Shown piece after piece: positions 426 to 50,221 of a stretch of DNA of 64,000 bases. Below the pieces are notes generated by a model. It did no database searches. It saw only the letters and a program-made list of their open reading frames with translations, and was not told the origin of the DNA. The position numbers and the translations under genes were made by a program. Source of the stretch: Candidatus Magasanikbacteria bacterium CG10_big_fil_rev_8_21_14_0_10_36_32. GTDB taxonomy: Bacteria; Patescibacteriota; Patescibacteriia; Magasanikbacterales; GWA2-37-8. The stretch is taken from positions 303,766 to 367,765 of the forward strand of contig PFBV01000003.1 of NCBI GenBank assembly GCA_002778465.1, given 5' to 3'. Position 1 is the stretch's first letter. Every line of letters starts with the position of its first letter.

Positions 426-1502
426 TTATTCTTCTAAATTTGGTCCATCAATCAGCATTGGTTCTATTTTTTTATCACCATCGGTAATCCTAACCACATC
501 TTTATCAATTTTGTTTAATTCTTTATAAGCGACATTGTAGGATTTTGCGGTTGTTTCAATATTCTTTCCCAGTTTTTTAAAGTACTCATCATAAGCGGAA
601 ATGTGTTTACCAAGCTCCTCTACTCTTTGGCGGATTTCTTTAGCTGACTCCTCTATTTTTAAAGCTCTCAAACCCTGCATAACTGTTTGTAAATAAGCCA
701 AAAATGAGGTTGGTGACACAATAATCACGTGTTTTTGTTTAAAGGCATATTCAATTAAATCATGAGTATTGGTTTTTATTGCTCCAACCTTATTAATTAA
801 TAGATCGTAATAAATTCCTTCAGCCGGAAGAAACATAAACGCAAAATCCATCGTACCTTCCTTCGGCTTTATGTATTTACTGGTTTCATCAATTCGTTTT
901 TTCAGGTCGCTTTTAAAAGCTGCTTCTAATTCTTCTTTTCGTGTTTGATCCTTCTCTTGTATTAGTCGGTTATAATTTTCCAAACTGAATTTGGAGTCAA
1001 TTGGTATGATTTTATCTTTGACTTTTACTACCGCATCAACAATGTCGCCATCGGAAAATTTATATTGCATTTCATAACTGCCCGGCGGCAGAACGTTTTT
1101 TAAAACAGTTTCCAAATAATATTCACCGAGGATGCCACGGTGTTTAGGGTTTTGCAAAGTTTCTTGTAGAATTTGCAGTTGGTTGGTAAAACCCATCACC
1201 TGTTTATTAGTTTCATCCAGTTTGGTTAGTTTTTCCGTTACGTCGGTAATAATTTTTATGCTTTGTCCGAACTGTCCTTGAATAGTTTTATTAATATTGT
1301 CCTGATTATCACTCATTAGTTTGTGTGTGTCGCTCATTTTTTGATCCATTGACTTGTTCAGTTCATTGATTTGATTTTGCAACATCAAGAAAAGGTTTTG
1401 TTCACCATCTTTTGGTTTAGTTTGAATTTTTTTAATCATTATAACCAGTAAAATTATAATGGCAGCCAGACCGGCAATGATGATATAATAAATTGGATTC
1501 AT
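426..1502 (-). CDS. rmuC: DNA recombination protein RmuC (N-terminal TM helix, coiled-coil, RmuC C-domain)
   Basis: 358-aa ORF with N-terminal membrane anchor IIIAGLAAIIILLVIMI, a long coiled-coil middle and a C-terminal region typical of RmuC. Confidence 0.75.
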   Translation of the reverse strand: MNPIYYIIIAGLAAIIILLVIMIKKIQTKPKDGEQNLFLMLQNQINELNKSMDQKMSDTHKLMSDNQDNINKTIQGQFGQSIKIITDVTEKLTKLDETNKQVMGFTNQLQILQETLQNPKHRGILGEYYLETVLKNVLPPGSYEMQYKFSDGDIVDAVVKVKDKIIPIDSKFSLENYNRLIQEKDQTRKEELEAAFKSDLKKRIDETSKYIKPKEGTMDFAFMFLPAEGIYYDLLINKVGAIKTNTHDLIEYAFKQKHVIIVSPTSFLAYLQTVMQGLRALKIEESAKEIRQRVEELGKHISAYDEYFKKLGKNIETTAKSYNVAYKELNKIDKDVVRITDGDKKIEPMLIDGPNLEE

Positions 1503-1684
1503 AAAAAAATTTCAATTGTAATGACGGTATTATATCATTGAAAATCTGAAAGTCAAAGAATAATGAAATTAAAATATAAAAAGTTTTGCTCTTGCCAAAA
1601 GTAAAAAATTAGTATATTGTGTGTGCGGTGGTTAAATGTTTTTAAATAGCGTGCCACGCATGGCTGACACAAGGATATTTGTAT

Positions 1685-1756
1685 GCCCCTGTAGTTCAAT
1701 GGATAGAACAAGACACTCCTAACGTCTAGATCCATGTTCGACTCATGGTGGGGGCA
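1685..1756 (+). tRNA. tRNA-Arg (anticodon CCT)
   Basis: Cloverleaf with acceptor GCCCCTG/TGGGGGC, D-arm GTTC-AATGGATA-GAAC, anticodon loop CTCCTAA and T-arm CCATG-TTCGACT-CATGG. There is one A-C mismatch in the anticodon stem and no encoded CCA. Confidence 0.8.
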
Positions 1757-1826
1757 CAGACGATTAACTGATAAACAGATAAGATATCAATCTAAAAAGT
1801 TTTTGGAGTAATTAGACCGCAAAGAT

Positions 1827-1959
1827 AATTGTTTCACGTGAAACAATTATATGAGAAACAAGGTTTCATGTGAAACAATGTTAGAATAGCGTAATTTATT
1901 AGAGTTATTTACTAAAGAAATAAATTAGGATTAAAAAAGACAAGGTTTCATGTGAAACA
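1827..1959. repeat. Three copies of a 14-bp palindrome GTTTCA(C/T)GTGAAAC at 1831-1844, 1864-1877 and 1946-1959. The first sits inside a perfect 22-bp palindrome AATTGTTTCACGTGAAACAATT
   Basis: Read directly from the sequence. Copies 2 and 3 share the extended ACAAGGTTTCATGTGAAACAAT, and copy 3 ends 8 bp before tRNA-Ala. Confidence 0.6.
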
Positions 1960-1967
1960 ATTCAAAT

Positions 1968-2040
1968 GGGCCTGTAGCTCATCTGGTAGAGCGCAGCATT
2001 CGCATTGCTGAGGTAAGGGGTTCGAGTCCCCTCAGGTCCA
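1968..2040 (+). tRNA. tRNA-Ala (anticodon CGC)
   Basis: Acceptor GGGCCTG/CAGGTCC with the G3:U70 alanine identity pair, D-arm GCTC-ATCTGGTA-GAGC, anticodon loop TTCGCAT, T-arm AGGGG-TTCGAGT-CCCCT and discriminator A. Confidence 0.85.
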
Positions 2041-2189
2041 CTATTTTTTCTTGTTATTGATAGGAAATTTATAAGGCAGGACAATATAAAATTTCGGCGA
2101 AAGTTTATATTTTTAGTTAATATTTCAGATTTGGTTGTAGTTATATTTTTTTAAAAAATATTTTGTCTAATTTTGTTAAAATATTGTCA

Positions 2190-2222
2190 AAACTCCTTTA
2201 AATAAGGAGTTTTTTATTGTTT
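2190..2222 (+). terminator. Rho-independent terminator-like hairpin after the tRNA pair
   Basis: AAAACTCCTT-taaat-AAGGAGTTTT followed by a T-rich tract. Confidence 0.45.
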
Positions 2223-2592
2223 TGAGTAGTTTTTAATAAATGGTGAGGTGTGGATGAATCTGTGCATAACTTGGGCTAAAGGGGGATAGATGTATAGAGC
2301 AGTGTATACAAATCTCACAATTCACATGGTGTTATTAACGGTGTTTTTAGTTTAGTAAAAGTGTTTTTTGTTGTTTTTTATTAAGAAAGTGGTAGAAATA
2401 AACATTGATTCTTATATTTGCGGGGGGGGTAGTGTGGAAAATCAAAGTGGATCAAAATCAGGATGTTTTGAAGGGTTGACAAAATTTCAAAAATATATTA
2501 TACATAATTTATACAATTTAAAATCCTGTTCAGTTTGAACAGGTCTCTGGCCCGGAGTTAGGGCAAAAGGAGCGGGTGATAACAAGCCCGAA

Positions 2593-3324
2593 GTGAATAT
2601 GATGGCGAATCCGTTGGAAGAGTTTAAAGATGTGCCATACGGCCGATGGGCCGCATTGGGACATAAACTTGGAGGTTTGAAGGCAATTGAGGTTATACTC
2701 AAAGACGATGAATTGGCGCGACGAATCAGAAAGCAGATTGCTGATGTTAATGTTACCACTATTATTCTGTCCGACGAGCGGACCCGCTTCTACAAGGAAG
2801 TCTTCGGTCTGACCGTGGATCTCTCCAAGGTGAGGCTCCCGCCCGAAACCGAAGGTTTCGGCTGGACGCTGACCATCGCCAAGGAGCTCGGTGACAAGCC
2901 ACTCGCCACAGTCATGGCCGCCTGTCGGAAGCTGTTCAAGGGCAATGTCTGGCAGTACGCCGACGACCTGGACAATTCCGTCCCGACCAACGACCGCGAC
3001 CCCCGACGCGACGGTTCCTACATCATCCGCGTCAGAGACAGAGTGGAAGCCGACGAGGAGAACAAGAATCTCTCGGCCGACACAGTCAAGTCGCGCAACA
3101 TGGTCACCCTGACACTGTTGGAGCGCATCGTCCTGGAGCTATTCTGCTTCTGGAAGACCGGCAAGCACCTGGACATCCAGAACACCACCCTTTGCTCCGG
3201 TTCGCGCAACTTCGATGGCGGTGTTCCGGGTTGTTGCTTGCGCGGCGGCGAGTTCGAGGTTTGCTGGCGCGGCTCGTCCAGTTGCCGCGGCGCTCTCCGC
3301 GCTCGCGAAGCAGTTTTGACCTAA
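2593..3324 (+). CDS. Conserved hypothetical protein, paralog 1 of 3 in this window. The first ATG is at 2599. The gene lies in a GC-rich island
   Basis: Shares FYKEVFGLTV...GDKPL...NDRDP...GSYIIRVRD..EADEENKNLSAD...TLTLLERIVLELFCFWKTGKHLD...TLCSGSR with ORFs 14464-15051 and 38361-39230. Upstream promoter-like TTGACA (2476-2481), 16-nt spacer, TATATT. GC rises to about 60% from about 2775 onward. Confidence 0.6.
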   Translation: MNMMANPLEEFKDVPYGRWAALGHKLGGLKAIEVILKDDELARRIRKQIADVNVTTIILSDERTRFYKEVFGLTVDLSKVRLPPETEGFGWTLTIAKELGDKPLATVMAACRKLFKGNVWQYADDLDNSVPTNDRDPRRDGSYIIRVRDRVEADEENKNLSADTVKSRNMVTLTLLERIVLELFCFWKTGKHLDIQNTTLCSGSRNFDGGVPGCCLRGGEFEVCWRGSSSCRGALRAREAVLT

Positions 3325-3385: not shown

Positions 3386-3556
3386 TTGGCTAATTTTAGC
3401 CATCAAAATCATTTATTTTTTGAGGTTTTTAAAAGAGATGAGTTATCCCGAAGTTATACACAGTCTATTGTTCAGAGCATATCAAATTTATGCTATAATA
3501 TAGTATAGTAATTTTTAAAATAAAAATTTATTTAATTTTAATTTAATTTATTCTTT

Positions 3557-6563: not shown

Positions 6564-7459
6564 ATTTTATGTTTAAAAAATTTTTATTTGTTTTGTTAAT
6601 TTGTTTTTTATGGGTTGGAAAAGCGGAAGCTTTTTCGATTAGTCCTTTAAAATATGTGGTTACCGTATCTCCGCGATCAAGCGAAGAGGTAGAAATAAAA
6701 ATTAAAAACGACCAATTAGTTAGCCAGAGATATGTTTTAAAGGTATTAGGAACGAAACAGAACAATCAAGGAGAATTAATTTTTTCAGAAGGTGTCAATC
6801 AAGCTGAAAATTGGGTTAAGCCAGAGAAAAATGTTGTACAAATTGATCCTGGCGAAGAAGTCACGGTTAATTTTTTTATAAAAACTGATTCTTTGGCTGA
6901 GTCTGGCTCATATTTTTTAGGTTTAGCAGCGGAGAATGTTGATTTAGGAGAACGGGAGGTTGGATTATCCGGAGAGTTAGTTTGTTTATTGTTATTACAA
7001 GTGTCTGGTCAGGTGCAGGAAAATTTATCGGTAACAAATTGGCAAACGGAAAATATAACTATAAATAAAATTTGGAACTTTGATCTATCAATTAAAAATA
7101 CATCTGCAGTTGAATTGCCAATTCAGTCAGAATTAATTATAAGAAATTGGCGTAATAAAATTATTTATAGAGAGTTGAATGATTTGGGATTATTGTTGCC
7201 ACAGGCAGACAGAATTTTTCAACAAAAAATTGACATGGTCGGACAAACATTTTTTTCAGGAAGTTATTCCGCGACCTTAAATATAATTTATGGACGAACC
7301 AATCAAATAAAAACTTTGGTTAAAAATTTTTGGAGAATATCTCCTGTTTGGATAATAATTTTAAGTGTAGTTGCAGTTGGAATAATAACTTTATTATATA
7401 GAATAAAAAAGAGAATGGTTGTTAAATTAAAAAAATATATTGAAAATTTTCAAGCATAA
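6557..7459 (+). CDS. Secreted hypothetical protein with C-terminal TM anchor
   Basis: Signal peptide LLICFLWVGKAEA; C-terminal WIIILSVVAVGIITLLYRIKKR anchor; overlaps the upstream gene by 7 nt. Confidence 0.5.
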   Translation: MVNFMFKKFLFVLLICFLWVGKAEAFSISPLKYVVTVSPRSSEEVEIKIKNDQLVSQRYVLKVLGTKQNNQGELIFSEGVNQAENWVKPEKNVVQIDPGEEVTVNFFIKTDSLAESGSYFLGLAAENVDLGEREVGLSGELVCLLLLQVSGQVQENLSVTNWQTENITINKIWNFDLSIKNTSAVELPIQSELIIRNWRNKIIYRELNDLGLLLPQADRIFQQKIDMVGQTFFSGSYSATLNIIYGRTNQIKTLVKNFWRISPVWIIILSVVAVGIITLLYRIKKRMVVKLKKYIENFQA

Positions 7460-7462
7460 AGT

Positions 7463-8398
7463 ATGAGAATAGGATTTAAAAAATTAATAATGGTTGTTTT
7501 GTTGATGTTGGGCTTGTTTAGTTTTTCAAATTTTGTTTATGGCAGTAGTGAAAGTAGTAATATAAATATACAAATGACCGTGCCAACGCCAGTGGTGGAA
7601 CCTGGCGATCCTGGCCCCGGAGGCAGTGATTCGGCACCGGTAATTTCAAATGTTGTAACAAGCACTTCGGCCAACAGCGCTGTTATTACTTGGATAGTAA
7701 CCGACGACAAAGGTTTAAGTAGTGTAAATTTTTATTATAGCGCGGACATGTCTTATGGTTTAACAACCACTACTATTGGAGCCTACCAAGTTAATTTAAG
7801 TAATTTGACGGAAGATACAATTTATTATTTTAAAATAGTCGCCACAGATATTGCCTCTAATGTAACTGAATACGCCGGGACACTTAAAACTTCCCTTGAT
7901 TCCGTTAAAAGTTTGAAAATATATGCGAAAGCAGAAAAACGAGTTCCCAAGATCGGAGGAAATCTGGCTTTGTTTACGACGGTCATTTTGTATGATCCAT
8001 CAGGTTTTTATTTGCCTTACAGTTTAAATGTTTCTTTGGATAAAACCGGTTCGTCTACTTTGTATAATGTCATAGTCCCAAACGGAACTAATTTAGAGGC
8101 AGTAATAAAAGGCCAGTCTCATTTAGCCAGGAAAATTATTGGCGTAAATATTCAAAATGGACAAGATATTTTTTTGGATTTTAGTGAAGCTGATTCGGTG
8201 GAATTATTGGCTGGAGATGTGCAAGGAACTGGATTAAAAGATAATTTTGTAGACATTCTCGATGTTTCAGCCGAGAATGTTAATTATAATAATATAGGAT
8301 TGAATGAAGATTTAAATCGTGATGGCGTAGTGGATATTTTGGATATGAGTATTGTATTAACCAATTTTAATTTAGCCGGTGTTCTGATTCCTTCATAA
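7463..8398 (+). CDS. Secreted protein with fibronectin-III-like region and C-terminal dockerin-like Ca-binding repeats
   Basis: Signal peptide; DILDVSAENVNYNNIGLNEDLNRDGVVDILDMSIVLTNFN matches the duplicated D-x-N-x-D-G-x-V-x-x-x-D dockerin type I pattern. Confidence 0.5.
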   Translation: MRIGFKKLIMVVLLMLGLFSFSNFVYGSSESSNINIQMTVPTPVVEPGDPGPGGSDSAPVISNVVTSTSANSAVITWIVTDDKGLSSVNFYYSADMSYGLTTTTIGAYQVNLSNLTEDTIYYFKIVATDIASNVTEYAGTLKTSLDSVKSLKIYAKAEKRVPKIGGNLALFTTVILYDPSGFYLPYSLNVSLDKTGSSTLYNVIVPNGTNLEAVIKGQSHLARKIIGVNIQNGQDIFLDFSEADSVELLAGDVQGTGLKDNFVDILDVSAENVNYNNIGLNEDLNRDGVVDILDMSIVLTNFNLAGVLIPS

Positions 8399-8402
8399 AA
8401 TT

Positions 8403-11288
8403 ATGACTAAAGCATTTCGTACAATTGTATTTTTTTTAGCGGCAGCGGCATTGTTGGCAACAGTCAGCATTGTTCAGGCGGCTACTTTTTCTTTAGAACC
8501 GGCTTCTGGAACTTTAATTAAAGGATGTCCGGCTTCTATTAATGTTAAATTAAATACTGGTAGCCAGTCGTCAAACGGCGCTCAAATTTATGTTGATTAT
8601 ACTGGTGTGAGCAGTGCCAACATGTCAGGCACGGGTTTATTTACGAGTTACGGTTTACCGCCGGGCTTGCCGGCCGGCACAGCTGGTTTGTATGGTTATG
8701 GAGGAGTGGTTTCTGGGGCATCTTTAAATTTTGGTCGCATTAATTTTACTGCTGGCGCACTGGGCACAGTTGGTTTAACTATTCGTTTTGGAGGCACAGA
8801 CAGTCTTGTTAGTAAAGTCGCAGCTTATCCTACCAGTGAAAATATACTTACCAGTGTTGTTTCTGGTTCATATACCATAGTCAATGGTTATTGTGAAACG
8901 GCTCCGCCGTATTTGGTTAATTTGATTCCGGCACCAGGAACGCCGAATCATCCGATTGATGAAAATATAAAGTTTGACATTAAAGATGATGGTTCCGGAG
9001 TGAATATATCTTCGTTGGTGGTTACGGTACAACAAAACGAAACAGATGTTCCTTTTAATATATCCACTGTTTTAAAAAGCACAACACAAGGTTGGTATTC
9101 AGTTGATATTGATCCGATTAATAACTTAATCCCAGAATTAAAAGTGGTTGTGACAGTAAATGTCTCAGATAATGCCGGCAATGCTTTATCCCGTTCCTAT
9201 TATTTTAATGATCTAACTTGCTCACAATTGGGTTGCGCGGTTGGGGGAGCGGTAGCTCAGTGTAATGATGGTATTGATAATGAGGGAGATGGAAGTGTTG
9301 ATTTTCCTAGCGATTCTGGTTGTGATAGTGTTGATGATAATAGTGAATATGTGTTGGGTGACATAGTTTGTACACAAGTTATTTCAACATCCACTTCGCC
9401 GGTTTGTCCATCACCGATTTGTGTTTCCGGCATATCGTCACAATGTAATGATGGTGTAGACAATGACAATGATAATTTGATTGACATGGCCGATCCAGGT
9501 TGTGATAGCGGAGATGATAACAATGAGTATGTTTTCGGTGAAGTTAAATGTCCAATTTGCCCATCTATAATTACCACTCCAACCATTACTCCTCCATTTA
9601 TTTCACCAACCACCACCCAACAGATTTTTGATGTGGGTGATTTAAAATTTTTCTTGGCTAGCCGAACAGTAGAAACAAAAGCCAGTAATTTAAGTGTGGT
9701 TGAAGATTTAGTGGGGATGAGTTTTGCGGTAGGAGCTAACATTAAAGATGTACAAGGTCCAATTACCGGAGTTTATTTAGTTTTGGGCGGAAAAACTTAT
9801 TCAATGTATTTTGATAATGGTTTAAAAATGTATGTCGCGGATGTGTTAGATTTAAACGAGGTGGAAATTTTAAACGGTATTGTTAGTGTTAAACATGGAA
9901 CCAATCAAGAAGATACCGCACAGTTTGTTTTATCTGTTTTAACATCAGGCATTGTTAGCAGTAAAGATCAAGATGGAAAAATCAATCCTTTGCCCGGTGC
10001 AACAGTTGTTTTAGAACAATTATCTTCTGCTAATAAATATATACAAATTAAAACAGCCATAACTAATAATCGCGGAGAATATGGATTTGTTTTGCCAAAT
10101 GGCAGTTATCGATTAAAAATTGATTCTGAAGGATATAAAAATCAAATTACCAGTGGTTTTACAATTACCAACCACATTATTAATCGGTTTTTCGTAATGT
10201 TCCCAAAGGTAGATTTGCTTTCGCCAGATGTTTCTTTGGGTGAGAAAATTACTTATATAGGAGATGTTGCGGGGGAGCAAACGAATAAAATTATTGAGAG
10301 TGTTAATGATCCAATAGTTGAACAAACAGCCAAAACAACCGTTGCCCCAATAGCTTTGGGCGCGGCCGTGGCAGCCACTGTTCCGGCTTTGTCATTTTTA
10401 AATTTAATTTCTTATTTAAGATTTTTATTTTTACAGCCAGTTTTCTTGTTTGGGCGCAAAAAAAGAAAGAAATGGGGAATTGTTTATAATGCGCTTACCA
10501 AAATGCCGATTGATTTGGCGTTGATTAGACTGTTAGATGTTAAGACAAACAAAGTAATTCAATCTCGTGTTACCGACACAGAAGGTCGTTATGCATTTTT
10601 TGTTGATCCCGGTTTGTACCGTCTTGAAGTGGTTAAACAAAGTTTGATGTTCCCGACTAAAATTTTACAGGATTTTAAAGAAGATACGACATTTTTGGAT
10701 ATTTATCATGGTGAGGCGATTCATGTGGATGAAAAATACACTGCCATTGCCGCTAACATCCCCATGGATCCGGTAGGTGTGGAAGAAAAAACACCACGTC
10801 GCATTATTTGGAGTCAGCGTTTGAGAGATTTACAAAGTTTTATTGCTTCATTGAGTATTGTTGCTGGTTTGGTTGCTTTAATAATTTCACCAACTTGGTG
10901 GACAATTGGATTATTTGTTTTCCAAATCGCAATTTATTATTTATTCAAACGTTTATCATCTGCTAAAAAACCAAAGAGTTGGGGTATTGTTTATGAAAAA
11001 ACGAATAATCAACCAGTCGACCGAGCGATGGCAAGATTATTTAGTAAGCAATTTAATAAATTAGTTGCTTCTGAATTGACTGATAATAACGGTCGTTATG
11101 CTTTCATGGTTGGACCAAATGATTATTATATAACTTTTGAAAAAACAGGTTACCAGAAAAAAACTACACCTGATATTAAAATTAAAGAACGGAATGAAAT
11201 TATTAAAGTCAATGTTGCTATGGATCGAGATGAATCATCAAAACCAATTTCAACCACTTCTAATCCTGTTCCGCCGGTTAAAAATTAA
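8403..11288 (+). CDS. Large (961 aa) surface protein. Modules: N-terminal cohesin-like beta domain, two Cys-rich CNDG(I/V)DN-type repeats, three CarboxypepD_reg-like domains, and internal TM segments
   Basis: Signal peptide FFLAAAALLATVSIVQA. Repeats QCNDGIDNEGDGSVDFPSDSGCDSVDDNSEY and QCNDGVDNDNDNLIDMADPGCDSGDDNNEY. Repeated KKWGIVYNALTKMPID...TDTEGRYAF and KSWGIVYEKTNNQPVD...TDNNGRYAF modules. Confidence 0.55.
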   Translation: MTKAFRTIVFFLAAAALLATVSIVQAATFSLEPASGTLIKGCPASINVKLNTGSQSSNGAQIYVDYTGVSSANMSGTGLFTSYGLPPGLPAGTAGLYGYGGVVSGASLNFGRINFTAGALGTVGLTIRFGGTDSLVSKVAAYPTSENILTSVVSGSYTIVNGYCETAPPYLVNLIPAPGTPNHPIDENIKFDIKDDGSGVNISSLVVTVQQNETDVPFNISTVLKSTTQGWYSVDIDPINNLIPELKVVVTVNVSDNAGNALSRSYYFNDLTCSQLGCAVGGAVAQCNDGIDNEGDGSVDFPSDSGCDSVDDNSEYVLGDIVCTQVISTSTSPVCPSPICVSGISSQCNDGVDNDNDNLIDMADPGCDSGDDNNEYVFGEVKCPICPSIITTPTITPPFISPTTTQQIFDVGDLKFFLASRTVETKASNLSVVEDLVGMSFAVGANIKDVQGPITGVYLVLGGKTYSMYFDNGLKMYVADVLDLNEVEILNGIVSVKHGTNQEDTAQFVLSVLTSGIVSSKDQDGKINPLPGATVVLEQLSSANKYIQIKTAITNNRGEYGFVLPNGSYRLKIDSEGYKNQITSGFTITNHIINRFFVMFPKVDLLSPDVSLGEKITYIGDVAGEQTNKIIESVNDPIVEQTAKTTVAPIALGAAVAATVPALSFLNLISYLRFLFLQPVFLFGRKKRKKWGIVYNALTKMPIDLALIRLLDVKTNKVIQSRVTDTEGRYAFFVDPGLYRLEVVKQSLMFPTKILQDFKEDTTFLDIYHGEAIHVDEKYTAIAANIPMDPVGVEEKTPRRIIWSQRLRDLQSFIASLSIVAGLVALIISPTWWTIGLFVFQIAIYYLFKRLSSAKKPKSWGIVYEKTNNQPVDRAMARLFSKQFNKLVASELTDNNGRYAFMVGPNDYYITFEKTGYQKKTTPDIKIKERNEIIKVNVAMDRDESSKPISTTSNPVPPVKN

Positions 11289-24462: not shown

Positions 24463-25107
24463 TTGGAAGTACTCCCTTTTTGGGAGAAGGACTTTGTGGC
24501 CGGTTTGGTTCGCGCGGCCGTGGAGAACACGTTTTTCACCGCCATCTCGGACAAGGACGCTCCGGCTCGTTTCGCCGACGCAGTCGCCAAGTGGCGCAAG
24601 CTCGCCAGCGACCTCGGCTACACCGGCCCGGTGCTCTGGCAGGTGAAGGCAGGATTCACTCTGAAGAAGCACGCCCCGCTTGCCGGTCCTTGCTATAAGC
24701 GGTTCGGCTATCTGCAGAACTGCTGGTCGCTTCAGAACGACGAGCCGACGGTTGGCTCTATGGTATTCTATATCCCGCGCATCGTCGCGACGGAGAAGAA
24801 CACCGAAGAACAGAAGCAGGCGCTGGCTAAGCTTCGCAAGAAGTACGGCCTGCCCGAGAGCCATCTGTCCTCGTTCGGTTCGGCTGCCTTGGTTTCCGGT
24901 CTTATTCTGGCGCATTTCAAGCGCACGGGCGAGCGCGCTCCGTTCAACAGAAATTGGGTTCGCACCGATACCCTGCGCACGGATGACTACCGGCTCGGTC
25001 TCGGCGACTTTGATGAGGACGGGCTCTACTGCGACCACTGCCGCTGGGGTGACGGCTGCGGCGTTAGTCTCGGGGTCTTTCCTTTGGGGGTGGAGCTGGG
25101 TTTCTAG
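24463..25107 (+). CDS. GC-rich (about 60% GC, high GC3) foreign ORF of unknown function. It has no in-frame ATG start (TTG at 24463) and is possibly a gene remnant
   Basis: Coherent high-GC3 codon usage in this frame only. The minus-strand 227-aa ORF is Arg/Leu/Ala-rich antisense noise. The first in-frame ATG is near 24760. Confidence 0.4.
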   Translation: MEVLPFWEKDFVAGLVRAAVENTFFTAISDKDAPARFADAVAKWRKLASDLGYTGPVLWQVKAGFTLKKHAPLAGPCYKRFGYLQNCWSLQNDEPTVGSMVFYIPRIVATEKNTEEQKQALAKLRKKYGLPESHLSSFGSAALVSGLILAHFKRTGERAPFNRNWVRTDTLRTDDYRLGLGDFDEDGLYCDHCRWGDGCGVSLGVFPLGVELGF

Positions 25108-48281: not shown

Positions 48282-48854
48282 ATGACTGAAATAAATAAAG
48301 TGAATGATAAAAACGGTTTTGTTCCAAAAGCATTTTGTGATGGAACAGAAGTATTTTTTTCATTTAAAAAGAAAACAGTGGAGCATACTGTCGGTTATTT
48401 TATTTTAGCGCCGTCAGGAGCGGGTAAAACACATTTTGTAAAAAACCAAAAAGAAAATCATTGGATTGACGGCGATCATCTTTGGATAGCGACAAACGCG
48501 CATCCGGATAGAGAATGGTGGCTTGAAAGCACAGTTTCCATGGACGAGATAGATCAGATGAGTGATATTATAACCATGCAAGCCAAAAAAATTGGATTAT
48601 GGGTTACCGGAGCTTCAAATAATTGGCTTCCACCAGATGCTGTTGTTTTACCGGATTGGAGAACGCACAAATCTTTCATTGTTAAACGCGAAAAAGAAAA
48701 TTATGACGGGGGAGCTAAAAGCAGTGATTTTAAGCAGGTTTTAGGTCACAGGGCTTATATTAAAAAAATAGCCCGGAAACACAAAACTCCGATTTTTAAA
48801 TCTATGGAAGACGCCGCAAATTATTTACAAAATAAATATAAAGAAAAACTATAG
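48282..48854 (+). CDS. Hypothetical P-loop NTPase (kinase-like)
   Basis: Walker A LAPSGAGKTHF about 40 aa from the N-terminus. Confidence 0.4.
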   Translation: MTEINKVNDKNGFVPKAFCDGTEVFFSFKKKTVEHTVGYFILAPSGAGKTHFVKNQKENHWIDGDHLWIATNAHPDREWWLESTVSMDEIDQMSDIITMQAKKIGLWVTGASNNWLPPDAVVLPDWRTHKSFIVKREKENYDGGAKSSDFKQVLGHRAYIKKIARKHKTPIFKSMEDAANYLQNKYKEKL

Positions 48855-49700
48855 TTCCAGTTTGAATTCTTTTCCTTCAGTATTAACAGTTGCATTTCCA
48901 TCCGAATCTAAGTCTATAGATAATCCCGCTCCGTATTCCACGGGCAGATATGTTTCCGGTAAAGACTTATTCAAAACATATTTTTTTGTCCAGGGACTTA
49001 TCGTATCATAATGAGAAACACACCAAATAGCCAGTCGGCTGTTTGGTTTTTCTTTGTGAAACAAAGAGGAATATCTTTTTAAAACTTCAAGAAATTTTTC
49101 TATTCGGTCAGCCATTTCTTCCGGTCCTTCAGCGCCCATTTTTTCTCTGGTTTCTTTTTCAGTCTCAGTTTCAAAAGCTACCCAAAAATCCTTAAAATCA
49201 GGATACTTTTCTTTTAAAAATTTAACGAAATCAGGAGATTGTTCAAACATATGAGGTTCACGAAGTTTTACAACAGGTTTGGGTCCGCCTTTTTCCGCTC
49301 CGCGATAATCTCTGGAGAGATTAAGTAAGTTTTTTTCGCTGATGCCGTTTTCTACCAATAATTTTTTAATTTTTTTGGCTATTATATCTGCTGTTTCCAT
49401 TGACCTTGCCCCATTGCCATTGTAGACAGTATCGCTCGCCAAAACCAGAAAGAATAAATTATTTCGTTCTTGGGGTGGAACTCGTTCAATTAAATTTTTG
49501 ATTCGTTGTTCACTTTCTTTGGTACCAGTTTCTTTCCCTTTGGCTGTTAAATGACCTGCCTCTGTAGAATTTGTATCTCTGACAAATTCTTCATGTCTCT
49601 GTAATAATATTCTAGTTTCTCCCATATCCAACGGTCCGGCTTCAATACTTTTATTTGTTATTTTTTCGATAGATGTGTTGAAAGTTTCGTGTTGTTTCAT
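48849..49700 (-). CDS. Histidine-phosphatase-superfamily (PGAM-like) protein
   Basis: LLQRHEE (RHG-like) near the N-terminus and CVSHYDTI (second catalytic His) near the C-terminus. Confidence 0.4.
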   Translation of the reverse strand: MKQHETFNTSIEKITNKSIEAGPLDMGETRILLQRHEEFVRDTNSTEAGHLTAKGKETGTKESEQRIKNLIERVPPQERNNLFFLVLASDTVYNGNGARSMETADIIAKKIKKLLVENGISEKNLLNLSRDYRGAEKGGPKPVVKLREPHMFEQSPDFVKFLKEKYPDFKDFWVAFETETEKETREKMGAEGPEEMADRIEKFLEVLKRYSSLFHKEKPNSRLAIWCVSHYDTISPWTKKYVLNKSLPETYLPVEYGAGLSIDLDSDGNATVNTEGKEFKLEL

Positions 49701-49825
49701 ATAATTTAAATTTATTTTTTTAAGATAAGTAGATTATAAAGTATAATTCAATTTTATTCCAGATAGCTCGGAATTGCAAGATGATTTTATATAAACAAAA
49801 CGACACAAATTATTGTGTCGTTTTG

Positions 49826-49847
49826 TTTTTGTGCCGCGAGTGGGAAT
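49826..49847. repeat. 22-bp direct repeat of the tRNA-Leu 3' end (second copy 50042-50063): att-site-like duplication
   Basis: TTTTTGTGCCGCGAGTGGGAAT is identical at both positions. The intervening roughly 195 bp are GC-rich. Confidence 0.6.
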
Positions 49848-49896
49848 TCCTCGTCGTCTCGCCGACCGCAACCGGCTCAACTCCTTGACCTGGGCA

Positions 49897-49928
49897 GCGT
49901 CGGACTTTCACTGAAAGTCCTCCGACGC
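49897..49928. repeat. Long GC-rich hairpin inside the GC-rich fragment next to tRNA-Leu
   Basis: GCGTCGGA-CTTTCAcTGAAAG-TCCTCCGACGC, nested inverted repeats. Confidence 0.5.
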
Positions 49929-50047
49929 TCCTCGCCTCATTTTTTCTTCCGAAAAAACTTCGGGCGTCGTTTCTGCCCGTTCGATTCCTTCTGTTCATGA
50001 TATATAAATAAAAACACCCCACGTATTGTGGAGTATTTTTATTTTTG

Positions 50048-50129
50048 TGCCGCGAGTGGGAATCGAACCCACACGACCGAAGCCGCAGGATTTTAAGTCC
50101 TGTGCGTCTACCAATTCCGCCATCGCGGC
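50048..50129 (-). tRNA. tRNA-Leu (anticodon TAA), class II with long variable arm
   Basis: Reverse complement GCCGCGATGGCGGAATTGGTAGACGCACAGGACTTAAAATCCTG-CGGCTTCGGTCGTG-TGGGTTCGATTCCCACTCGCGGCA. Confidence 0.85.
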
Positions 50130-50221
50130 TTAAAACAAAAAAATAATATCATAATTCCAATAAAAAATCAAGAGCTTATTATATTATATATAGATAGCAG
50201 AGGAGGTTGATTCGTGGTATA

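Follow-up and report, generated by a model that had tools for sequence, protein, structure and literature searches.

The T-loop is a known crossover sublocation of the genomic islands that integrate in tRNA genes (PMC4383910), and the islands collected by Islander measure 2-200 kb, contain a tyrosine integrase and leave an intact tRNA gene with a cognate 3' fragment downstream in the same orientation (PMC4383910). Cis-mobilizable elements (CIMEs), which derive from integrative and conjugative elements or integrative and mobilizable elements, still have attL and attR but no longer the genes for integration and transfer (PMC5704250). Here we compare these systems with the tRNA-Leu(TAA) locus in a 64,000-nt stretch of Candidatus Magasanikbacteria bacterium CG10_big_fil_rev_8_21_14_0_10_36_32 (contig PFBV01000003.1, positions 303,766 to 367,765; hereafter the window), in which the tRNA gene is followed by a GC-rich fragment and a second copy of its own 3' end. 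This fragment is a partly decayed copy of a family of small, structured and protein-less elements of 120-150 nt located directly 3' of tRNA genes in Candidatus Magasanikbacteria; their flanks are derived from the local tRNA with fixed breakpoints, their distribution is patchy, and in arrays the intact copies are those closest to the tRNA. As with tRNA islands and CIMEs, the insertion lies in the 3' part of the tRNA gene, sequence brought by the insert makes the tRNA whole again, the old 3' end is shifted downstream with its orientation kept, identity begins in the T-loop, and tandem accretion at one tRNA is possible. Unlike the islands, the units are only about 215 bp long and contain neither an integrase nor any other gene, and unlike both islands and CIMEs their content is a conserved structured core and not a set of arbitrary remnants, each unit has an inverted copy of tRNA sequence, and the repeats at its flanks differ from one tRNA species to another around a core that remains constant.

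In the window, the 22-mer TTTTTGTGCCGCGAGTGGGAAT is present exactly twice and comprises the final 16 nt of tRNA-Leu(TAA) and 6 nt more, as stated in the first-pass annotation of this DNA; no third match was found in the 64 kb with up to three mismatches allowed, and the chance expectation estimated from shuffled sequences was 0. Read in the tRNA sense it consists of ATT (positions 58-60), CCCAC (61-65), TCGCGGC (66-72), A73 and CAAAAA, which are T-loop residues A58-U60, the 3' strands of the T-stem and acceptor stem, A73 and six bases of the trailer. The two copies are 194 bp apart (repeat spacing 216 bp), and the distal copy provides a cognate tRNA 3' fragment (49832-49847, minus strand) downstream of the intact gene and co-oriented with it, which is the Islander configuration. 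The earlier description of the locus as an insertion footprint is therefore borne out by the restored tRNA, the co-oriented 3' copy and the start in the T-loop, but the locus has neither the integrase nor the 2-200 kb length of such islands; the suggested search for an integrase gave no match to Phage_integrase (Pfam) in any of the 20 window open reading frames (ORFs) of 240-480 amino acids (aa) tested. Beyond the 22-mer, the similarity of the repeats runs on through the terminator hairpin that follows each copy (27/45 matches), but terminators of this layout are all 45-69% alike, so this extension may reflect a shared design and not homology. For the same reason we did not rely on the likeness between the window and L025 terminators (see below) as a sign that the terminator travels with the element. 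A decayed second tRNA-Leu gene was rejected as well, since the rest of the tRNA showed no significant similarity to the fragment.

The locus is base-for-base the same in two independent assemblies (ENA ERZ27293412 and Logan SRR6240789), and is thus not an assembly artefact. A chance repeat or an assembly chimera, for which only the shortness of the repeat would speak, is in effect already refuted by these identical assemblies, by the zero matches expected by chance, by the conservation in a relative with 95% identity (L019) and by the repetition of the L025 array in L026. Two short-read contigs from different samples end inside the tRNA-Leu gene (L009 with 1-76, L002 with 1-60) and L019 begins inside the element, as might be expected if repeats at this locus cause assemblies to break.

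The GC-rich stretch between the two repeat-plus-terminator blocks comprises 149 nt (49848-49996) with 56% G+C, compared with about 35% for the window and 25-30% for the neighbouring spacers. As originally described, it contains a nested hairpin (49898-49924) and no intact gene: the only ORFs are of 61-70 aa, with no Pfam match and no codon-position G+C signal. A remnant of a GC-rich coding gene was rejected on the basis of the flat G+C over the codon positions in all six frames and the lack of a Pfam match; this is in contrast to the two other GC-rich islands of the window, which have a G+C content at third codon positions (GC3) of 0.71-0.76. Substitutions between the fragment and its L019 counterpart favour no reading frame and are not coding-like.

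In many Magasanikbacteria the tRNA-Leu(TAA) gene is located divergently upstream of a pilin-like operon. The sister lineage L019, in which the neighbouring gene is 95% identical at the aa level, has the same fragment and displaced tRNA end, and the insertion therefore predates the split of the two genomes; the fragment shows 92.6% nt identity, a divergence near that of the adjacent spacer (92% identity) and slightly lower than at third codon positions (12.7%). In the syntenic but distant L025 (NrdD 75% aa identical) the tRNA-Leu gene is followed by a tandem array in the order tRNA, terminator, E1, terminator, E2, terminator, truncated E3, terminator, and this array is reproduced in the independent assembly L026. 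L025-E2 shares 72.6% nt identity with the window fragment over 168 nt with 5 gaps, while the corresponding figure for the two tRNA-Leu genes is 72% and no alignment is possible for the neighbouring spacer, making the element as conserved as the tRNA; the stems of the two large hairpins have entirely different sequences in these two copies with the pairing kept. A third lineage (L043/L044) has one further copy plus fragments behind its tRNA-Leu. Altogether, the element is present behind tRNA-Leu(UAA) in three Magasanikbacteria lineages, with tandem arrays in two of these (L025 and L043), and in the arrays the tRNA-proximal copies are intact and the distal copies truncated. One further copy is found behind tRNA-Met(CAU) (L025, 487-620). 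The copies fall into two subtypes, with E1, the tRNA-Met copy and L043-Ea forming type 1, and the window, L019, E2 and E3 copies forming type 2. In L012-14, L015/16 and L017/18 the orthologous tRNA-Leu lacks the element and is followed by a GC-rich orphan gene, a tRNA-Pro gene and a convergent gene, respectively, and the tRNA-Met of the window also lacks it. With such variable DNA following tRNA-Leu the fragment is not universal, and a conserved non-coding RNA (ncRNA) at this position, which the first-pass annotation had named as the finding that would speak against an insertion, is seen in some relatives but not in these three groups.

Along the tRNA strand, the parts of every copy come in one order: the tRNA 3' end in direct orientation (D), a terminator (T), an inverted repeat (I), the core, and the next D. 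The first D is the live tRNA 3' end, and each later D is the displaced end of the previous copy. The terminator, present after every unit, consists of an A-tract, a hairpin and a U-tract. The inverted repeat, which the earlier annotation had missed at the other end of the element, is an inverted copy of the local tRNA 3' segment that always ends at the complement of position 53 (for tRNA-Leu GUGGGAAUCGAAC) and extends outward for 10-20 nt, whereas the next D starts at T-loop position 57 or 58. Repeat I can pair either with the following D, forming helix P1 that closes the unit, or with the preceding D across the terminator. The latter gives a near-perfect hairpin of 35-40 bp (-41 to -53 kcal/mol, z = -9 to -11), which was first noticed via a spurious Rfam match and then confirmed by folding. 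The core of 120-135 nt, which has four to five helices with many compensatory changes, contains helix P3 (7-8 bp, capped by GGAA or GGGA), helix P4 (10-12 bp) and the short hairpin P5, next to which are a tandem G-A and an extension of 3 bp; type 2, the type of the window copy, additionally has the enclosing helix P2 (GGGCAG/CUGCCC).

Both flanking repeats match the local tRNA at three different tRNA-Leu sequences and at one tRNA-Met. At the window tRNA-Leu, the inverted repeat is the degenerate AGAAGGAAUCGAAC, which matches 10/13 positions of the ideal reverse complement of tRNA positions 53-65, and the direct repeat ends in ...UCGCGGCAC. At the L025 tRNA-Leu the inverted repeat is the ideal sequence and the direct repeat ends in ...CCGGACCAC. 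The L043 tRNA-Leu has a different T-stem (GUGAG/CUCAC), and here the inverted repeat GGAUCGG-GUGAGAAUCGAAC is complementary to its own tRNA end at 18/20 positions and accompanied by the direct repeat GAUUCUC.... At the L025 tRNA-Met, the inverted repeat is CUAGGACUUGAAC and the direct repeat AGUCCUAGCCCCGCAAC. The core of the tRNA-Met copy is identical to that of E1 at 70/75 positions, and 4/5 differences constitute two compensatory double changes in P4. With near-identical cores and differing ends at tRNA-Leu and tRNA-Met, the core is common to the sites while the flanks are site-specific.

The structure of the core is supported by covariation. In a model-based alignment 92% of pair cells contain standard pairs compared with 66% in shuffles, and 25 pairs are changed on both sides compared with 15.1 +/- 2.1 in shuffles; the covariation score is 0.422 vs 0.143 for shuffled alignments, with 0/500 shuffles reaching 0.422. 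Controls with slid partners gave 33-51% pairing, and a recount without two antisense partial rows gave the same picture. Compensated variation was seen in 11/11 P4 pairs and 6/7 P3 pairs. Independently of the alignment, folding E2 to its minimum free energy (-77 kcal/mol, z = -7.5) yields the hand-drawn structure, and the other intact copies also fold well (E1 z = -6.0, tRNA-Met copy z = -5.9). The presence of GNRA loops in 6/6 copies, tandem G-A in P5, 6 G-U vs 2 A-C cells and U-tract terminators suggests that the core is probably a functional RNA. The G+C richness of the element comes from its structure and not from a donor genome, contrary to the original view of foreign DNA from a GC-rich source.

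A covariance model (R1), trained only on the window, L019 and L025-E2 copies with the hand-drawn structure, identified three copies outside the training set: L025-E1 (44 bits, E 1e-9), the tRNA-Met copy (28 bits, E 1e-5) and L043-Ea (13.9 bits). It matched nothing else in the window, nor anything in ten other loci of the Candidate Phyla Radiation (CPR). With Rfam 15 only the tRNA passes the gathering threshold in the whole window, and at E<=10 the window locus and the intact L025 array gave only far-sub-threshold, spurious matches; a known ncRNA was therefore rejected at both levels. Exact-word scans of IMG/VR with six element segments were without match for five, and the sixth, a 16-mer, gave chance matches in GC-rich phage genes, while blastn searches of phage and plasmid collections gave only short chance matches. 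Empty sites were found neither in a scan of JGI metagenomes with a 20-mer att sequence, which returned only unrelated tRNAs, one of them phage-borne, nor in a scan of GTDB with the neighbouring protein, which returned one relative without conserved synteny. Homologues of the neighbouring protein with 66-75% identity are not syntenic either, and the contig of a 79% relative ends inside the tRNA.

The coordinates of the features are listed in Table 1. Terminator T1 separates tRNA-Leu from the element and resembles the terminator upstream of L025-E2, and T2 is probably the original tRNA-Leu terminator. The first 8 nt of D1 can still pair with I, but with two mismatches in the resulting P1; P4 is interrupted by a 2x2 internal loop, and the window copy folds with only -56 kcal/mol (z = -1.3), which is no better than shuffled sequences. 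Together with its presence in L019 at a spacer-like divergence, this indicates that the window copy is old and decaying, and we infer that since insertion the closing helix has gone, along with most of the folding advantage. The earlier interpretation as the residue of an excised or degraded element is thus correct as to decay, for which footprint is a fair word, although what decays is a member of a conserved family of small elements and not a larger island.

Table 1. Positions in the window of the features of the tRNA-Leu(TAA) locus and of the two other GC-rich islands.
Feature	Position	Strand	Basis or remark
Promoter-like site for tRNA-Leu (TTGATT, 17 nt spacer, TATTAT, TG extension)	50143..50171	-	Conserved in relative L009
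tRNA-Leu(TAA), intact	50047..50129	-	ARAGORN; Rfam tRNA 63.9 bits
Proximal 22-mer copy (tRNA positions 58-73 + CAAAAA)	50042..50063	-	Word search
Proximal direct copy D0 (last 16 nt of tRNA-Leu)	50047/8-50063	-	ARAGORN, Rfam
Terminator module T1 (A-tract, hairpin CUCCAC/GUGGGG, U-tract UGUUUUUAUUUAU)	50006..50044	-	Inverted repeat
Inverted tRNA-derived repeat I, degenerate (AGAAGGAAUCGAAC)	49979..49992	-	Intact versions in L025, L043
Closing helix P1	49984-49991 with 49840-49847	-	Pairing of I with D1
Structured core (type 2)	49848..49978	-	Model R1 alignments, covariation, homologues in L019, L025, L043
Core helix P2	49973-49978 with 49892-49897	-	Model R1
Core helix P3a	49963-49966 with 49933-49936	-	Model R1
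Core helix P3, GGAA loop cap	49951-49957 with 49940-49946	-	Model R1
Core helix P4, CAGUG loop (the hairpin of the first-pass annotation)	49914-49924 with 49898-49908	-	Model R1
Core helix P5	49872-49876 with 49861-49865	-	Model R1
Distal displaced 22-mer copy D1	49826..49847	-	Word search
Terminator T2 (perfect 16-bp hairpin, then U-tract, after displaced copy)	49793..49828	-	Inverted repeat; conserved in L019
Promoter-like site (TTGCAA, 17 nt spacer, TAAAAT) for 283-aa gene 48849-49700; end of locus	49751..49779	-	
Island 1, 243-aa ORF, GC3 0.71	2593-3324	+	No Pfam match
Island 2, 214-aa ORF, GC3 0.76	24463-25107	+	No Pfam domain

Taken as a whole, we favour the reading of a conserved element family that inserts non-autonomously into the T-loop, restores the tRNA and has a likely RNA core, and consider the chances of this complete combination to be about even. 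The element would be a non-autonomous unit of about 215 bp that inserts in a site-specific manner into the T-loop of a tRNA gene, using an enzyme encoded elsewhere and supplied in trans. Each insertion would bring a new tRNA 3' end and terminator and displace the old 3' end distally, and repeated insertion would result in arrays in which the newest and most intact copy adjoins the tRNA with the decayed copies farther out. The core would be an RNA read through from the tRNA promoter, and a circular form is predicted to have a junction in which the 3' end of the core is joined to ATTCCCAC. Since the element ends carry both strands of the target, a part of the core in target-site recognition is plausible, although we regard it as rather doubtful. 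An extended version is a self-targeting mini-element, in which the RNA ends, representing both strands of the T-arm and acceptor, guide insertion into the T-loop by the trans-acting enzyme and rebuild the tRNA along with its terminator. Each new target would provide a fresh template for the flanking repeats, and one core could then serve both tRNA-Leu and tRNA-Met; we regard this version as tentative and rather doubtful.

Several points weigh against the favoured reading. The evidence for the family comes from about eight copies in four genomes, and the alignment used for covariation was fitted to the covariance model and hence leans to the structure of that model. We found no within-species polymorphism of empty and filled sites, no free or circular form of the element and no candidate enzyme. 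No promoter separates the element from the upstream terminator, hence transcription would rely on read-through, and the element may act as folded single-stranded DNA, as in the attC sites of integrons and the attP of CTX phage; the hairpins could have been selected in single-stranded DNA instead of RNA. What looks like recent movement between tRNA-Leu and tRNA-Met could be the product of gene conversion among old lineages that are each tied to one tRNA. Finally, the target-specific inverted repeat is located between element-specific parts, which the favoured reading does not account for; fold-back copying primed from the terminator hairpin is one candidate origin of the matched repeat, and the other is a long separation of tRNA-specific lineages with cores kept alike by gene conversion.

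The alternative closest to the original annotation is a tyrosine-integrase island at tRNA-Leu with the 22-mers as attL and attR, of which a functionless, CIME-like deletion remnant is left. The intact tRNA with a co-oriented downstream 3' fragment and identity from the T-loop is indeed the Islander signature (PMC4383910), and the presence of direct repeats and absence of genes would fit the letter of the CIME definition of retained attL and attR with loss of the integration genes (PMC5704250), provided that the repeats are functional att sites. The unremarkable fold of the window copy and its divergence from L019 at about the neutral-spacer rate are also as expected of such a remnant. However, deletions that happened independently would not leave the same 130-nt core, complete with compensatory changes, at two tRNAs and in three lineages, and neither the inverted tRNA-derived repeat with its co-variation with the host T-stem nor the tandem arrays of protein-less units in L025 and L043 are predicted. 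No integrase is present in the interval or among the tested window ORFs, and within the limited search space of IMG/VR, phage and plasmid collections there is no larger relative of the core and no full-length relative with shared ends, all relatives being equally small. This makes a remnant distinctly unlikely. A resident, non-mobile ncRNA gene family, in which the closing helix mimics the acceptor and T-stem, for instance to borrow tRNA end-processing, and arrays result from tandem duplication, would account for the GNRA loops, tandem G-A, G-U pairs and a helix closed from the two ends, as well as for the terminator after each unit, the conservation equal to that of the tRNA, and the orientation that is always that of the tRNA. 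Still, such genes would have no promoter and a strong terminator directly upstream of each unit, they are patchy among close lineages, and decay grows with distance from the tRNA. One core is moreover present behind both tRNA-Leu and tRNA-Met with ends re-tailored to each, and part of I is complementary to T-loop positions 53-57, a stretch that pairs with the real tRNA and not with the 3' end of the unit itself. We therefore consider the resident family unlikely, albeit not strongly so.

The third alternative is an attachment site of folded single-stranded DNA made up of D, the terminator and I, for which integron attC and CTX-phage attP are precedents. The D/I stem would mimic the duplex of the tRNA-gene 3' end, just as the hairpin stems of integron attC and the attP of CTX phage and of integrative mobile elements exploiting Xer (IMEX) can reproduce the target duplex, and as in those systems insertion beside a fixed site is polar and repeated. 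If one strand were exchanged in the T-loop and the product then replicated, the outcome would be exactly the observed order of tRNA, terminator, I, core and D, and the I repeat represents the target bottom strand across the junction (53-65 and beyond), whereas D starts only at 57 or 58. The near-perfect D-terminator-I hairpins also fit, and as in cassette arrays the units are separated by imperfect palindromes, here of about 80 nt with inverted-repeat outer arms. On the other hand, no recombinase was identified and no link to an IntI- or Xer-type enzyme was shown; the arms are tRNA-derived and change with the tRNA, and on inspection do not contain the integron R'' (RYYYAAC) or R' (GTTRRRY) consensus, nor that of dif. 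The cargo consists of cores homologous to each other, unlike the diverse ORFs of integron cassettes, and GNRA loops and U-tract terminators are more natural in RNA. A folded site would also be a mechanism for the element family and not a separate identity, and as an explanation of its own we assign it a low probability.

Further afield, the element shares features with guide-RNA modules. As in the omega-RNA of TnpB and the bridge RNA or seekRNA of IS110, a structured, non-coding scaffold measuring about 130-150 nt has at its end 16-20 nt that equal flanking or target DNA, and both the bridge RNAs and the tandem interspersed guide RNA (TIGR) systems provide precedent for sequences matching both target strands. 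The 3' 16-20 nt of the element are the local tRNA end and the 5' 10-20 nt its complement, which is no more than a resemblance to a guide segment, and unlike in guide-RNA modules the target-derived segments are terminal, overlapping and complementary to each other. Pfam comparisons of 20 window ORFs revealed no tnpB, IS110 or tas gene, and neither tnpB or IS110 recombinase genes nor tas are among the neighbours of the copies. TIGR-Tas systems, which occur in CPR bacteria and phages, have a 36-nt unit with two alternating repeats of 8-12 nt and 9-nt spacers, with a Nop-domain tas gene adjoining (PMC12045711); a TIGR array was rejected because the unit here is about 215 nt with a 130-nt structured core and the repeat structure differs. 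Miniature inverted-repeat transposable elements (MITEs) of the Correia/NEMIS type are likewise small and protein-less, with inverted repeats that are able to pair in RNA, and may carry terminators, but their inverted repeats are their own, the same at every site and accompanied by a short target-site duplication, whereas here the repeats copy the local tRNA, only tRNA T-loops receive insertions, and the ends differ between tRNA-Leu and tRNA-Met and between hosts. R2 is a eukaryotic retrotransposon without long terminal repeats that encodes its own reverse transcriptase, and has non-autonomous short internally deleted element (SIDE) derivatives in rRNA genes (PMC3414825). The likeness with R2 and SIDE lies in site-specific insertion into a structural RNA gene, co-transcription, host-gene sequence at the ends of a structured RNA and short non-autonomous derivatives, whereas no reverse transcriptase is linked to our element and the tRNA is restored instead of disrupted. 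The element fits neither an Rfam family nor a known class of mobile element, and we see it as a variant of the tRNA-targeting insertion elements, with a real chance that its mechanism is new.

If the favoured reading is true, tRNA genes of CPR bacteria host very small, structured and protein-less insertions that are missed by standard tools, as island finders drop candidates that are below 2 kb or lack an integrase and Rfam has no model for the element. The inverted and direct tRNA copies with their fixed breakpoints at 53 and 57/58 point to an insertion chemistry or RNA-assisted recognition that has not been described for tRNA-targeting elements, and patches of high G+C in CPR genomes that are otherwise A+T-rich can turn out to be structured elements and not foreign DNA. 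The covariance model and sequence landmarks are now at hand for a genome-wide survey.

Some additional observations were made at the tRNA loci. Behind the tRNA-Met element, L025 contains a decayed second unit without core (640-780, plus strand), in which a hairpin is fused to a partial tRNA-Met end (CTAGCCCCGCAACA) and accompanied by a terminator like those in the tRNA-Leu array and a degenerate inverted repeat (TTAGGATTTGAAT). An HNH endonuclease gene is located directly 5' of tRNA-Leu(TAA) on the same strand in L012 (2401-2877), L014 (346-822) and L015 (1848-2342), which represent two separate Magasanikbacteria lineages that both lack the element, and is a possible homing endonuclease tied to this locus. 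L012 also has a 227-aa orphan gene with 57-59% G+C (1584-2267, minus strand) 47 nt downstream of the orthologous tRNA-Leu, without a duplicated tRNA end, and it seems that atypical DNA has repeatedly landed in the 3' flank of tRNA-Leu. The window tRNA-Leu itself differs from those of all Magasanikbacteria relatives (L009, L012, L015, L017, L025) in its D-arm (GGCGGAAUUGGUAGACGC) and variable arm, and resembles the tRNA-Leu of an IMG/VR phage contig (L006/L008) in the D-arm, the variable arm and the whole 3' end, and going by these sequences the gene may have been replaced.

With regard to the two other GC-rich islands, the first-pass annotation had grouped these with the tRNA-Leu fragment as three foreign fragments and proposed a test for a shared donor. 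One donor for all three is not supported: both islands are protein genes of large Patescibacteria families. A common donor was rejected since there is no blastn similarity between the element and islands 1 and 2 and the two island proteins are unrelated to each other. Island 1 matched 1489 cluster representatives at E<=1e-3 in a library of 1.84 billion proteins, and is flanked by a weak 27-nt direct repeat (2451-2477 and 3402-3428, 70% identity). Island 2 belongs to a family of about 240 aa with at least 148 members, mostly in Patescibacteria, and its homologues (L025 6001-6726, L024 6001-6732) were GC-rich in every host examined, with 63.6% G+C and GC3 0.855 in a 42% locus and 65% and GC3 0.91 in a 50% locus, and this composition therefore belongs to the gene family and is no evidence of a recent donor in common with the tRNA-Leu element. 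In L024, another Patescibacteria genome, the homologue adjoins bAvd and RVT_1 genes (7274-8728), the hallmark pair of diversity-generating retroelements. Lastly, the region between tRNA-Arg and tRNA-Ala in the window (1826-1961, plus strand) contains three copies of a 22-nt motif with the palindrome TTTCAYGTGAAA (ACAAGGTTTCATGTGAAACAAT), which from its sequence looks like an operator.

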